Assembly: GCF_002854065.1 (NCBI RefSeq)
Contig: NZ_CP024147.1
Length of the DNA: 64,000 bases
Source: Escherichia coli
GTDB lineage: Bacteria > Pseudomonadota > Gammaproteobacteria > Enterobacterales > Enterobacteriaceae
Direction: 5' to 3' (one strand)
Notes under the pieces: model-generated
Seen by the model: only the letters and a program-made list of their open reading frames with translations
The model's database searches: none
Told to the model about the DNA's origin: nothing
Shown: one piece after another, positions 43,635 through 48,568 of the stretch
Layout of the letters: each line of letters starts with the position of its first letter
How positions within the stretch are numbered: the first letter of the stretch is position 1
Position numbers and translations under genes: made by a program

Positions 43635-44104
43635 TTATATATTGCTCTATTTTTGCAAATCAAATCACAAATAATCAAATAAGATCTTTAATTGAACTGT
43701 TTTGATTACTACAGTGCACTTACCGAATACATACAGAGGCATTGCTTAGCGAAACACAAAATTTCCTGAGACATTATTAACGTCAGCAGAAGGTTCATGC
43801 ATTGACAACGGAAATGTACGCTTATGGAGGGCGTTCCGACGATGTTTGCCAAATTCATAGATGTTATTCAAACGTTTTTAACTGAACCGGCAATTTTAAT
43901 TGGTTTGCTGGTGGGTATTGGTTATGCCCTTGATAAGAAATCGCCAATAAAAATTATTACCGGCATGGTCAGCGCCATGGTGGGATTAATGATGGTGTTA
44001 TTTGGTGGTTTCCAGTTTTCCGCAACATTTAAACCGGTAGCAGAAGCCGGGTGATGCTGCCAACTTACTGATTTAGTGTATGATGGTGTTTTTGAGGTGC
44101 TCCA

Positions 44105-44380
44105 GTGGCTTCTGTTTCTATCAGCTGTCCCTCCTGTTCAGCTACTGACGGGGTGGTGCGTAACGGCAAAAGCACTGCCGGACATCAGCGCTATCTCTGC
44201 TCTCACTGCCGTAAAACATGGCAACTGCAGTTCACTTACACCGCTTCTCAACCCGGTACGCACCAGAAAATCATTGATATGGCCATGAATGGCGTTGGAT
44301 GCCGGGCAACCGCCCGCATTATGGGCGTTGGCCTCAACACGATTTTCCGCCATTTAAAAAACTCAGGCCGCAGTCGGTAA
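44105..44380 (+). CDS. insA: IS1 InsA
   Basis: 91 aa with CxxC zinc finger; part of IS1. Confidence 0.9.
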
Positions 44381-44802
44381 CCTCGCGCATACAGCCGGGC
44401 AGTGACGTCATCGTCTGCGCGGAAATGGACGAACAGTGGGGATACGTCGGGGCTAAATCGCGCCAGCGCTGGCTGTTTTACGCGTATGACAGGCTCCGGA
44501 AGACGGTTGTTGCGCACGTATTCGGTGAACGCACTATGGCGACGCTGGGGCGTCTTATGAGCCTGCTGTCACCCTTTGACGTGGTGATATGGATGACGGA
44601 TGGCTGGCCGCTGTATGAATCCCGCCTGAAGGGAAAGCTGCACGTAATCAGCAAGCGATATACGCAGCGAATTGAGCGGCATAACCTGAATCTGAGGCAG
44701 CACCTGGCACGGCTGGGACGGAAGTCGCTGTCGTTCTCAAAATCGGTGGAGCTGCATGACAAAGTCATCGGGCATTATCTGAACATAAAACACTATCAAT
44801 AA
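44299..44802 (+). CDS. insB: IS1 InsB (transposase catalytic portion, expressed as InsAB by -1 frameshift)
   Basis: 167 aa ORF; A6C slippery motif TTAAAAAAC at 44354-44362. Confidence 0.9.
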
Positions 44803-45965
44803 GTTGGAGTCATTACCCAGAAGCCGTAAGTAAAGCCTATGGTGTTCACGGATATTTAATGGATTCCTACGCAATGAAAGCGGCAACGCAAATTGCATTG
44901 GGGGATAATTTTGGTTATGTCGGGTATGTATTTGTACTGGCGTTTTTTACCAACCTGCTGCTGGTATTATTTGGTCGGTATACTGGTGCCAAAGGGATAT
45001 TTTTGACAGGGAATACCGGTGTTTCACATTCTCAGGCGGTATTATGGTTGATTGTCTTTTGGCTGGGTTTTAGCTGGACTACATCCATTATTATTGCCGG
45101 AATATTAACGGGTGTATTCTGGGCGTTCTTCACCACGCTCATTGTTAAGCCCATTGCCAAAGTTACCAAAGATGCCGGTTTTACCATTGCTCATAACCAG
45201 ATGTTGGGATTGTGGTTTTTCTCCAAATTCGCCCATAAATTTGGTGACCCTGAAAAGCACGATGCTGAAAACCTGAAACTTCCCGGGTGGCTGGCGATTT
45301 TTAACCATAACGTAACGGCTATCGCCATTGTGATGACGCTGTTTGTCGGTGGTTTCTTGCTATCAACGGGTATCGATAATGTCCAGTTAATGGCGAAAGG
45401 CAAGCCCTGGTACATCTATATCATCAACCTTGGCTTACAGTTCTCCATGTATATGGTCATTCTGCTGCAGGGTGTGCGCATGATGGTGGGCGAAATTAAC
45501 GGTTCGTTTAAAGGCTGGCAAGATCGCTTTATTCCTAACGCTATTCCTGCTGTCGATGTTGCAGCGCTGTTACCTTTTTCACCCAATGCCACAACGTTAG
45601 GCTTCGTCTTCTGTACTTTTGGCACCATTTTTTCGATGGGGATCTTATTACTGGTTCACAGCCCAATTATGGTATTGCCTGGCTTTGTACCTCTGTTTTT
45701 CTCTGGCGGTCCAATTGGCGTATTAGCAAACCGCATGGGCGGATACCGTTCCGTAATTATCTGTACGTTCTTGCTGGGTATTATTCAGACCTTTGGTACG
45801 GTGTGGGCTATTCCGTTAACCGGGCTTGCTGAAAATGGCGTCGGCTGGACAGGAATATTTGACTGGGCAACCGTATGGCCTGCTATTTGTGAAGTTCTGA
45901 AATTTATCGCTGCAACATTCCATCTTGGTCCTTACGCGGGTTAATTAAATATTAAGGGTTTAAAA

Positions 45966-46286
45966 ATGAAAGATACAATTAATATTCTGTTTGTCTGTGG
46001 TTACGGTGTAGGCAGTAGCGTTATGTTACAAACGGTCGTTAAAAAAGCGCTGACCAAATATGATTTCAAAGTTGAAATGGAACATACCGCCGCAGGTGAA
46101 GTCGGCGGATTTACCGACTGGGCGGATATTTTTGCTATTTCCAAAAAATTACTCGATGTGGTTAGTCTTGACCCGAAACAAGGGCAATATCTGATCCCGA
46201 TAGAGAATATTATGGACGGTGAAACTATTGGTCAGCAAATTTATGAAGTGGTTCAGCAACATTATCCGCATTTAATTAATCAATAA
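45966..46286 (+). CDS. PTS EIIB, ascorbate (UlaB/SgaB) family
   Basis: 106 aa; N-terminal ILFVCGYGVGSS phospho-cysteine loop. Confidence 0.75.
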   Translation: MKDTINILFVCGYGVGSSVMLQTVVKKALTKYDFKVEMEHTAAGEVGGFTDWADIFAISKKLLDVVSLDPKQGQYLIPIENIMDGETIGQQIYEVVQQHYPHLINQ

Positions 46287-46353
46287 GGTAGGGCGTAATG
46301 AGAGCGATTATTCTGCTGTTCGATAGTCTGAATAAACGGGTAATGACTCCAAC

Positions 46354-46857
46354 TTATTGATAGTGTTTTATGTTCAGATAATGCCCGATGACTTTGTCAT
46401 GCAGCTCCACCGATTTTGAGAACGACAGCGACTTCCGTCCCAGCCGTGCCAGGTGCTGCCTCAGATTCAGGTTATGCCGCTCAATTCGCTGCGTATATCG
46501 CTTGCTGATTACGTGCAGCTTTCCCTTCAGGCGGGATTCATACAGCGGCCAGCCATCCGTCATCCATATCACCACGTCAAAGGGTGACAGCAGGCTCATA
46601 AGACGCCCCAGCGTCGCCATAGTGCGTTCACCGAATACGTGCGCAACAACCGTCTTCCGGAGCCTGTCATACGCGTAAAACAGCCAGCGCTGGCGCGATT
46701 TAGCCCCGACGTATCCCCACTGTTCGTCCATTTCCGCGCAGACGATGACGTCACTGCCCGGCTGTATGCGCGAGGTTACCGACTGCGGCCTGAGTTTTTT
46801 AAATGGCGGAAAATCGTGTTGAGGCCAACGCCCATAATGCGGGCGGTTGCCCGGCAT
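46354..46857 (-). CDS. insB: IS1 InsB
   Basis: Identical protein to copy 1 InsB. Confidence 0.9.
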
Positions 46858-47051
46858 CCAACGCCATTCATGGCCATATCAATGATTTTCTGGTGCGTAC
46901 CGGGTTGAGAAGCGGTGTAAGTGAACTGCAGTTGCCATGTTTTACGGCAGTGAGAGCAGAGATAGCGCTGATGTCCGGCAGTGCTTTTGCCGTTACGCAC
47001 CACCCCGTCAGTAGCTGAACAGGAGGGACAGCTGATAGAAACAGAAGCCAC
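46776..47051 (-). CDS. insA: IS1 InsA
   Basis: Identical protein to copy 1 InsA. Confidence 0.9.
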
Positions 47052-48568
47052 TGGAGCACCTCAAAAACACCATCATACACTAAATCAGTAAGTTGGCAGC
47101 ATCACCGAATAAACGTTATCTGCCACCTTATGGCGATGCGTTAACCAAAGCGCCTAATTTCCAACGTCTGGCGGCTCATGCCGCCACCTTTGAAAACAGT
47201 TACGTCGGCAGTATGCCGTGTATGCCTGCCCGGCGGGAGTTGCATACCGGGCGATGTAACTTCCTGCATCGGGAGTGGGGGCCGTTAGAACCGTTTGACG
47301 ATTCCATGCCGGAGCTGCTTAAAAAGGCGGGGATCTATACCCACCTGATAAGCGATCATTTGCATTACTGGGAAGATGGCGGCGGGAATTATCATAATCG
47401 CTACAGTTCGTGGGAGATTGTGCGCGGACAGAAAGGCGATCACTGGCATGCAAGCGTTGCGCAACCGCCTATTCCCGAGGTGCTACGGGTGCCGCAAAAG
47501 CAGACCGGTGGCGGTGTTTCTGGTCTGTGGCGCCATGACTGGGCAAACCGGGAATATATTCAGCAGGAAGCGGATTTTCCACAAACTAAAGTGTTTGATG
47601 CAGGCTGTGCCTTTATCCACAAAAATCACGCGGAAGATAACTGGTTATTGCAGGTCGAAACGTTTGATCCGCACGAGCCGTTTCACACAACGGAAGAGTA
47701 TCTTTCCTTGTATGAAGATAACTGGGATGGACCGCATTATGACTGGCCGCGTGGCCGGGTGCAGGAAAGCGACGAGGCCGTGGAGCACATCCGTTGCCGG
47801 TATCGTTCGCTGGTGTCGATGTGCGATCGCAACCTGGGGCGCATTCTCGACCTGATGGATGAGCACGATCTGTGGCGAGATACCATGCTGATTGTCGGCA
47901 CTGACCACGGCTTTTTACTCGGTGAGCATGGCTGGTGGGCGAAAAACCAGATGCCTTATTACAACGAAGTTGCCAATAATCCGTTGTTTATCTGGGACCC
48001 GCGCAGTGGTGTAAAAGGAGAGCGGCGACAGGCACTGGTACAAATGATCGACTGGGCGCCAACGTTGTATGACTTTTTTCAACAGCCAGTGCCGCCCGAT
48101 GTGCAGGGGCAACCGCTGGCGAAAACGGTCAGTCACGATGAACCAGTACGCAGCTCGGCGATGTTTGGTGTCTTCAGTGGTCATGTTAACGTAACTGATG
48201 GGCGTTTTGTCTATATGCGTGCAGCGCTGCCGGGGCGTGAGGATGATATTGCCAACTACACGTTGATGTCCTGCAAAATGAACAGCCGCTATCCGGTGGA
48301 TGAGATGCGGGCTTTATCGCTGGCCCCACCGTTTCGTTTTACCAAAGGGTTACAGGTATTACGCATCCCGGCACAGGAAAAATATAAGGGGTTGAATCAG
48401 TTTGGTCATTTGCTGTTTGAGCTGCAAAACGATCCGCAGCAGCTACATCCGATTCATGATGATGTGATCGAGTCCCGGATGATCGCGTTGCTGATTCAGT
48501 TGATGAAAGATAATGATGCGCCGCCAGAGCAGTTTCAGCGCCTGGGATTAGCGTAGAGAAGTGATTTT

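Follow-up and report, generated by a model that had tools for sequence, protein, structure and literature searches.

An IS1-interrupted EIIC-EIIB-sulfatase islet between rlmC and artJ of Escherichia coli, a possible satellite of the L-ascorbate (ula) regulon

Introduction

The closest described counterpart of the locus analyzed here is the L-ascorbate phosphotransferase system (PTS) of Escherichia coli, encoded by ulaABC (SgaTBA) and accompanied by ulaG, ulaDEF and ulaR. The locus itself is a small islet for the PTS components EIIC and EIIB and a sulfatase, located between rlmC and artJ in a 64,000-nucleotide stretch of the E. coli contig NZ_CP024147.1 (assembly GCF_002854065.1), which is referred to as the window in the following. 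The islet EIIC shares the Pfam family EIIC-GAT and 40% identity with UlaA, and the EIIB corresponds to that of the ula system in its type and N-terminal Cys. Furthermore, the corresponding module of several Firmicutes is embedded in or divergent from ulaG/D/E/F, and the islet promoter resembles the ulaA promoter. In contrast to UlaA, the islet EIIC falls into a separate NCBIfam equivalog (NF009550), and unlike the ula system the enterobacterial islet contains no EIIA, no regulator and no catabolic gene, and it carries a Cys-type sulfatase in the place of ulaC. The explanation that we favor on balance is that of an islet killed by IS1, whose intact form would be a satellite of the ula system for sulfated ascorbate.

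PTS permeases without an EIIA are familiar in E. coli, as are sulfatases unlinked to a maturase, and the absence of these partners is in itself ordinary. TreB, MalX and ScrA are enterobacterial permeases that share the unlinked Crr (EIIA-Glc). The likeness to these systems lies in a permease operon without its own EIIA, which in their case receives the phosphoryl group from a resident EIIA of its own class; however, they belong to the glucose family with EIIA-Glc, whereas the putative partner of the islet is of the EIIA_2 class (UlaC or similar). On the sulfatase side, AslA-AslB, YdeN-YdeM and the YidJ region with YidF likewise comprise an S1 formylglycine sulfatase, and orthologous modules in nine Firmicute loci also adjoin a gene for an anaerobic sulfatase-maturating enzyme (anSME), as the islet of Leclercia does at a distance of 2.8 kb. 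Unlike AslA-AslB and YdeN-YdeM, the islet of E. coli and Salmonella has no maturase, and its sulfatase is devoid of a signal peptide and coupled to a PTS. PMC8379841, citing Benjdia et al. (2007, FEBS Lett 581:1009), names AslB and YdeM as putative anSMEs of E. coli and mentions a suspected third, unidentified formylglycine-forming system. An accessory region of Streptococcus pneumoniae, also a host-associated bacterium, combines PTS components with a putative sulfatase as well, but its PTS is of the lactose/cellobiose family, whereas the islet PTS is of the L-ascorbate/GAT type; its gene content differs and includes a ROK protein, and the abstract reports no link to ascorbate genes (PMC3283741). 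A literature search for the EIIC-EIIB-sulfatase islet by gene names, presumed Salmonella locus tags and O-island terms retrieved nothing relevant.

Two IS1 Insertions Have Split EIIC and the Sulfatase

The window is part of an E. coli chromosome and, at positions 20000-43500, matches the strains CUWW06 and 100416 with 100.0% identity; the gene order is potHI-ybjO-rlmC followed, beyond the islet, by artJMQIP. The region is the known accessory islet EIIC-EIIB-sulfatase of E. coli and Salmonella between rlmC and artJ, where it occupies the place of a 198-bp spacer of K-12 containing repetitive extragenic palindromic (REP) sequences; in RefSeq records of other strains, the genes carry the labels "PTS sugar transporter subunit IIC", "IIB" and "sulfatase". 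In CUWW06 and 100416, the nearest E. coli genomes, the islet is intact.

The islet of the window harbors two copies of IS1 with terminal inverted repeats and the InsA and InsB frames (HTH_Tnp_IS1, Zn_ribbon_InsA, DDE_Tnp_IS1; Table 1). Copy A is flanked by the 9-bp target duplication CAGAAGCCG at 44041-44049 and 44818-44826 and cuts EIIC after about 70 codons; the remaining 3' fragment has an internal ATG at 44859 as its sole start codon. Copy B is flanked by the 9-bp target duplication GAATAAACG at 46330-46338 and 47107-47115 and cuts the sulfatase after codon 13, and the severed N-terminal piece bears the invariant Asp9. In silico excision of each IS1 together with one duplicated 9-mer restores open reading frames (ORFs) of 447, 106 and 493 amino acids. 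The reconstructed sulfatase and EIIB are identical to the proteins of CUWW06, in which both IS1 sites are empty, and EIIC differs in three residues. Because each IS1 has its own paired target duplication, these data establish that IS1 transposed twice, in simple, independent and very recent events, and we have next to no doubt that they inactivated the islet in this strain. The original prediction had missed the insertions and had spoken of an operon, which is not intact here as EIIC and the sulfatase are both split.

Compared with IS1-rich E. coli and Shigella lineages, in which inactivation involves the same 768-bp IS1 with InsA/InsB and 9-bp duplications, this is nothing unusual, although two IS1 copies in one 3.5-kb operon are a heavy load. 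The window contains three IS1 copies, and the nearest genomes gave 36-38 matching places per record, which we attributed to IS1 copies.

Table 1. Positions of the islet, its genes, insertions and flanking features in the window
Feature	Position	Strand	Remarks
rlmC	42417..43544	+	Left flank; K-12 homology ends at 43537 (K-12 alignment 40399-43537)
Whole islet in this strain	43538..48606		5069 bp; 3515 bp minus both IS1 copies and the duplicated 9-mers
36-bp near-perfect palindrome	43598..43633		CGTGATCGATCG...CGATCGATCACG; CGTGATCGATCGGTTATTATTAATCGATCGATCACG on the - strand; just within the left edge of the islet
Promoter/operator block	43650..43716	+	Conserved in all enterobacterial islets at any chromosomal site
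EIIC 5' fragment (EIIC-GAT, L-ascorbate family)	43842..44049	+	About 70 codons; ORF stops at 44054 within IS1
IS1 copy A	44050-44817	+	768 bp; insA 44105-44380, insB frame 44299-44802
EIIC 3' fragment	44827..45944	+	Residues ~77-447 of the RefSeq model
EIIB (PTS_IIB, 106 aa)	45966..46286	+	Only intact gene of the islet
Sulfatase 5' fragment	46299..46338	+	Codons 1-13, including the invariant Asp9
IS1 copy B	46339-47106	-	768 bp; inverted, 100% identical to copy A
Sulfatase 3' fragment	47116..48556	+	Residues 14-493; C49-M-P-A-R-R-E-L-H-T-G-R and GTDHG motif
GC-rich hairpin	48569..48596		GCCGGAGTGGG...CCCACTCCGGC; where the sulfatase and artJ genes converge
artJ	48607..49338	-	Right flank of the islet (K-12 alignment)

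Products of the Three Reconstructed Genes

The reconstructed EIIC of 447 amino acids matches PF03611 (EIIC-GAT) with E=5e-97 and the NCBIfam model NF009550 with 958 bits at a cut-off of 583. RefSeq places the start of the gene at 43824, whereas the original prediction had placed it at 43842. As a GGAGG motif at 43826-43830 (11 nucleotides upstream) precedes the ATG at 43842 and the shorter proteins of other genera begin at the equivalent Met, the latter start is probably the better one. EIIB matches PF02302 (E=8e-11), and its Cys11 lies within ILFVCGYG in the sequence ILFVCGYGVGSS, which aligns with the motif VCGNGQGSS of UlaB.

The reconstructed sulfatase of 493 amino acids combines PF00884 (Sulfatase, E=1e-28) with PF16347 (SGSH_C). 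The residues C49-M-P-A-R53, D9, D277-H278 and K290 are invariant in 15 sulfatase homologs from Proteobacteria and Firmicutes, and C49-M-P-A-R-R-E-L-H-T-G-R, likewise invariant in these homologs, is, as read from its sequence, the signature of a Cys-type formylglycine sulfatase. The protein begins at the first beta-strand (MRAIILLFDS...) and has no signal peptide; therefore, it is predicted to be cytoplasmic. We found no close solved or characterized relative: among solved structures, the best PDB match (E=5e-22) covers the C-terminal third only, and YidJ matches with E ~2e-7.

EIIA and Maturase Genes Are Not Linked to the Islet

The space from the rlmC stop at 43544 to the artJ stop at 48607 is filled by EIIC, EIIB, the sulfatase and the two IS1 copies, which bears out the earlier statement that no gene for an EIIA, an anSME or a formylglycine-generating enzyme (FGE) lies between rlmC and artJ. 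A small EIIA or maturase ORF that might have been overlooked within the islet was also looked for and not found, the leftover ORFs being too short and without a relevant Pfam match. Pfam searches with ten leftover islet ORFs, the largest among those listed, returned IS1 InsA/InsB and no other family, and a single unassigned ORF (47376-47855) reaches 130 amino acids or more; it is an alternative frame of the sulfatase gene without a Pfam match. Extending the search to the whole window, tblastn gave no match at E<=0.01 with four EIIA seeds, namely UlaC of E. coli plus three EIIAs encoded in orthologous loci of Firmicutes, and none at the same threshold with one anSME seed; an FGE is excluded by ORF size and Pfam only, as no FGE seed was used. 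The sole DeoR-family match in the window is located at 25881-26621, 17 kb from the islet, and is probably deoR itself.

The gene for the ascorbate-type EIIA, ulaC, is present in 5422 of the 5426 complete E. coli genomes; therefore, an EIIA of the ascorbate class is practically always available in trans. The intact islet, which is conserved as a three-gene unit without an EIIA, thus very probably depends on an unlinked EIIA and on unlinked maturation. In this respect the proposed dependence on unlinked genes stands for the intact islet, but as the islet is dead in this strain, the question of its partners is moot here.

The Intact Islet Is Maintained in Enterobacteria

Among the 5426 complete E. 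coli genomes, 566 (~10%) contain the 3' part of the sulfatase gene. The E. coli alleles of the islet form two groups with >=99% and 90-95% identity, respectively, both of which hold the three genes IIC-IIB-sulfatase, and the carriers include O157:H7 and O145. The three-gene islet of Salmonella is also located at rlmC-artJ, and its sulfatase protein cluster comprises 4238 member sequences. In Enterobacter (L009 3466-10143) and Leclercia (L019 3139-11485), the islet is located between an arylsulfotransferase gene (471 amino acids) and yidE, which we regard as a second "sulfur-ester" neighborhood. Silvania, Yokenella and further species of Escherichia carry this unit as well. In total, it occurs in no fewer than six genera of enterobacteria and at more than one chromosomal site.

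No EIIA or regulator was found within 10 kb of the sampled enterobacterial islets. A maturase occurs within this distance only in Leclercia, in addition to a fragment in Silvania; the YidF-like anSME of Leclercia is located 2.8 kb upstream of the islet and scores 458 bits against TIGR03942 (cut-off 349). Directly upstream of the Leclercia islet we also noticed dsdA and, besides this YidF-like anSME, two genes for small membrane proteins.

Each enterobacterial species sampled retains intact ORFs for the three proteins. For the computable gene pairs between E. coli and Salmonella or Enterobacter, dN/dS is 0.02-0.05, with saturated synonymous sites and without the E. coli-Salmonella EIIB pair, for which dS was not estimable. 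Judged by these values, the intact three-gene unit is a stable, functional unit under strong purifying selection and not debris. Decay nevertheless recurs in individual strains: besides the strain analyzed here, E. coli ET201 (L002 3842-7780) has an EIIC gene interrupted by IS1 at another position and a sulfatase gene with an internal stop, and shortened sulfatases form the protein clusters P0031, P0036 and P0072.

Orthologous Loci in Firmicutes Link the Module to Partner Genes and to ula Genes

For a comparison beyond enterobacteria, one genome per species was taken, resulting in 63 loci, which were mapped by tblastn and hidden Markov models from the K-12 Ula proteins and from Firmicute seeds. 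The comparison set consists of the 33 non-enterobacterial loci with a high-identity sulfatase ortholog; the sulfatase family is strongly conserved, the Firmicute proteins being 61-67% identical to that of E. coli. EIIC and/or EIIB are encoded in 29 of these loci, with the pair directly upstream of the sulfatase in nearly all cases, and a DeoR-family regulator is adjacent and upstream in ~23 of the 33. An EIIA_2 gene, separate or fused, belongs to 15 of the 29 PTS-linked Firmicute loci and usually flanks the module directly, and in two protein clusters the sulfatase continues at its C-terminus into the EIIA. A radical-SAM/SPASM (anSME-like) gene is adjacent in nine of the 33 loci, and the one tested scored above the TIGR03942 cut-off. 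The closest non-enterobacterial relatives with 67% identity (L011 and Blautia, L023) show the order anSME-DeoR-IIC-IIB-sulfatase-EIIA, and by gene content and order the enterobacterial islet corresponds to the middle three genes of this module.

As the larger modules carry an anSME and an EIIA, the previous assumption that the sulfatase needs formylglycine and the PTS an EIIA is confirmed by these partner genes. They also bear on the proposal that the islet is a remnant of a larger locus, which stands for its evolutionary origin but not in the sense of decayed debris, as the unit is stable and selected. No PTS genes adjoin the sulfatases with less than ~57% identity (Paenibacillus, actinomycetes, SAR86, Brachyspira). 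In three cases a second, divergent EIIC-GAT/EIIB/sulfatase module adjoins the ortholog, namely in Dielma fastidiosa (L024 14315-17422), a Clostridia bacterium (L052 14354-17121) and Bacillus sp. FJAT-50079 (L044 4656-7905); therefore, the pairing of PTS and sulfatase is found in at least two subfamilies.

The ula genes are unlinked to the islet in enterobacteria, and in 8-9 of the 33 non-enterobacterial loci at least two of ulaG, ulaD, ulaE and ulaF are located within 10 kb. Neobacillus niacini (L030) has a single operon IIA-IIC-IIB-sulfatase-UlaG-UlaD-UlaE-UlaF, and a metagenome-assembled genome of Clostridium (L047) the order UlaG-IIA-IIC-IIB-sulfatase ... UlaF-UlaE. In Bacillus sp. SD088 (L013/L034), DeoR-IIA-UlaG-UlaD-UlaE-UlaF is divergent from IIC-IIB-sulfatase, and the lactonase is an UlaG equivalog with 644 bits at a cut-off of 306. 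Bacillus sp. FJAT-50079 has a tandem pair of IIC-IIB-sulfatase modules after UlaG-D-E-F. In Clostridium sp. chh4-2 and MCC353 (L035 1067-11479 and L039), the sulfatase follows genes for TctA, UlaG-like, UlaF-like and UlaE-like proteins, a split transketolase, an URO-D-like protein and GntR, a non-PTS version to which ula-like enzymes are still linked. The EIIAs linked to the sulfatase have their highest score with the model for the ascorbate EIIA but do not reach its cut-off. Apart from the ula enzymes, no catabolic enzyme recurs beside the module. A sulfatase "inserted" in the ula regulon of Sebaldella had been noted in an earlier study, which regarded it as unrelated (PMC3219644).

The Islet Promoter Resembles the Control Regions of ula

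An ungapped block of 68 bp upstream of EIIC is common to the enterobacterial islets. Its first part, TGCAA-N6-TCACA, has the appearance of a CRP-like site, in which the half-sites are conserved and the spacer varies, and the islet promoter looks CRP-dependent. The second part is a dyad with the arms AATAATCA and TGATTAYT, whose half-sites are phased at 10 bp. With a matrix of 40 columns derived from six species, both strands of ~200 kb of enterobacterial DNA were scanned. Among the non-self matches, the K-12 ulaA promoter ranked first with 17.9 bits and the region upstream of ulaR third with 10.5 bits. By genomic SELEX (systematic evolution of ligands by exponential enrichment), UlaR binding has been mapped to the ulaA promoter and to the ulaR upstream region (PMC5934670). 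Furthermore, the inverted pair ARTAATC...GATTAYT occurs in 205 kb only at the islet promoters and the ulaA promoter (0.07 in shuffles). Triple half-sites phased at 10 bp are confined to the ula intergenic region and the islet promoters (0.005 in shuffles). The comparison with the UlaR operator rests on our own pattern analysis, and co-regulation of the islet by UlaR is therein suggestive only.

The region upstream of artJ (window position 49408, - strand; L017 12484/12504, - strand; TTATTGCATATAAATTCA...) was second with the islet matrix and first with its CRP-like half. We presume this to be an unrelated AT-rich regulatory site and would guess at an ArgR box; the match shows that the islet matrix is not very specific.

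Discussion

In its intact form, the three-gene unit would act as a satellite of the L-ascorbate (ula) regulon. EIIC and EIIB would import and phosphorylate a sulfated ascorbate, most plausibly L-ascorbate 2-sulfate, with the unlinked ascorbate EIIA, UlaC, as phosphoryl donor. The cytoplasmic Cys-type sulfatase, matured by an unlinked activity (the unidentified Cys-type system of E. coli or an anSME homolog), would then strip off the sulfate and yield L-ascorbate-6-phosphate, which would serve both as the substrate of UlaG-UlaD-UlaE-UlaF and as the inducer of the repressor UlaR. A promoter of CRP-dependent appearance with an operator resembling the ulaA promoter would fit such a role. That the product enters the ascorbate-6-phosphate pathway is the simplest reading because ula genes, and no other catabolic enzyme, recur beside the module. 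L-ascorbate 2-sulfate is the obvious candidate because it has a free 6-OH for phosphorylation by the PTS and is a common metabolite of animal plasma and urine, according to animal metabolomics papers. Our literature search for bacterial use of this compound found none; it appeared only in such metabolomics papers.

We consider the chances of a link between the islet and the ula pathway to be even, and L-ascorbate 2-sulfate as the substrate is a tentative assignment. The new and wider proposal, that a widespread and uncharacterised module represents the sulfated-ascorbate branch of the ula system, lies in between, from tentative to at best evenly balanced. Most specific, and put forward with corresponding reserve, is the possibility of an undescribed bacterial route for L-ascorbate 2-sulfate with uptake and phosphorylation by the PTS and cytoplasmic desulfation, for which the enterobacterial islet would be a three-gene plug-in that shares UlaC, UlaR/CRP and UlaG-UlaF, its sulfatase being a client of the unidentified formylglycine system of E. 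coli. This would provide a concrete and cheaply testable function, the use of sulfated ascorbate, for an islet present in ~10% of E. coli, in very many Salmonella enterica sequences and in many gut Firmicutes, together with a model for its regulation as an operon that is a satellite of ula. If true, a host-derived nutrient would be added to those that distinguish gut E. coli lineages, and a native cytoplasmic Cys-type sulfatase would be supplied for finding the unidentified formylglycine-forming activity of E. coli.

The strongest alternative, although in our view rather unlikely, is that the intact islet handles another sulfated sugar or sugar acid via a resident EIIA_2 (SgcA, CmtB, FrvA or similar) and its own regulator, and that the adjacency to ula genes in Firmicutes only reflects that L-ascorbate-family PTS genes tend to cluster with pentose-phosphate feeder pathways. 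Several observations weigh against an ascorbate substrate, and some of them are in line with this alternative. Most orthologous loci, ~24 of the 33, are without a ula gene over a distance of 10 kb, and the two Clostridium loci with ula-like enzymes use a TctA transporter instead of a PTS. About half of the PTS-linked Firmicute loci are without a linked EIIA; therefore, such a lack is not peculiar to genomes with a known ulaC. The DeoR regulators next to the module are of a generic kind: their best NCBIfam matches are the GlpR and AgaR models, all below cut-off, and a candidacy as UlaR orthologs is unsupported as they are not UlaR equivalogs. The EIIC shares only 40% identity with UlaA and has its separate equivalog, and the second divergent modules of L024, L052 and L044 imply several substrates. 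With regard to the promoter, the inverted-pair and triple-half-site patterns were defined post hoc with both sequences already seen, and when the matrix was split into two of 20 columns neither half singled out the ula promoter, which means that the split matrices are not ula-specific. We also assume that other EIIA_2-type proteins of E. coli (SgcA, CmtB, FrvA, PtsN) could serve instead of UlaC. On the other hand, 8-9 of 33 loci with ula catabolic genes at a distance of up to 10 kb are far above chance for a single-copy pathway, and in Neobacillus and a Clostridium the sulfatase gene is even part of the ula operon, with the PTS genes on one side and ulaG on the other. Enzymes of an alternative catabolic pathway do not recur beside the module, and it is the ulaA promoter that the islet promoter resembles.

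It is improbable that the enterobacterial islet is a cryptic, decaying remnant that lost EIIA, regulator and maturase on transfer, with the window as a late stage. Such a history would be compatible with the six genes of the nearest relatives, with the restriction of the islet to ~10% of complete E. coli genomes and with the recurrent decay (two IS1 here, IS1 and a stop in ET201, shortened sulfatase clusters), but the low dN/dS between E. coli, Salmonella and Enterobacter, the intactness of all three ORFs throughout the sampled enterobacterial species, a promoter/operator block kept at different chromosomal sites and the 4238 sequences in the Salmonella sulfatase cluster argue for a maintained unit. 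Finally, a composite transposon, or an inversion between the IS1 copies that moved the EIIC'-EIIB-'sulfatase segment, can be dismissed with hardly any reservation: identical inverted copies do enclose a segment of 1521 bp and a third IS1 7.5 kb away has no target duplication, but either event would break the matching pairs CAGAAGCCG/CAGAAGCCG and GAATAAACG/GAATAAACG, whereas each IS1 has its own 9-mer pair and the outer 9-mers differ, and deletion of the IS1 copies gives colinear, intact ORFs with a sulfatase equal to that of CUWW06 and an EIIC three residues off.

Additional Features of the Region

The 36-bp palindrome at the left edge is found in the islets of Escherichia and Salmonella and not in those of Leclercia, Silvania, Yokenella and Enterobacter; it could form a hairpin or serve as a protein-binding site. 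Consensus scans for sigma-70 promoters and terminators in the promoter region and at the 3' end gave no hit above shuffle expectation, and the GC-rich hairpin was not called as a terminator.

The third IS1 of the window (54662-55429) is 99.87% identical to copies A and B. It has no 9-bp duplication (flanks GAAACTGCG and AGTAATCTC) and lies within ~3 kb of extra DNA between the presumed ybjP (52753-53274) and the presumed ybjQ (56303-56626), which suggests an IS1-mediated deletion or rearrangement at this site.

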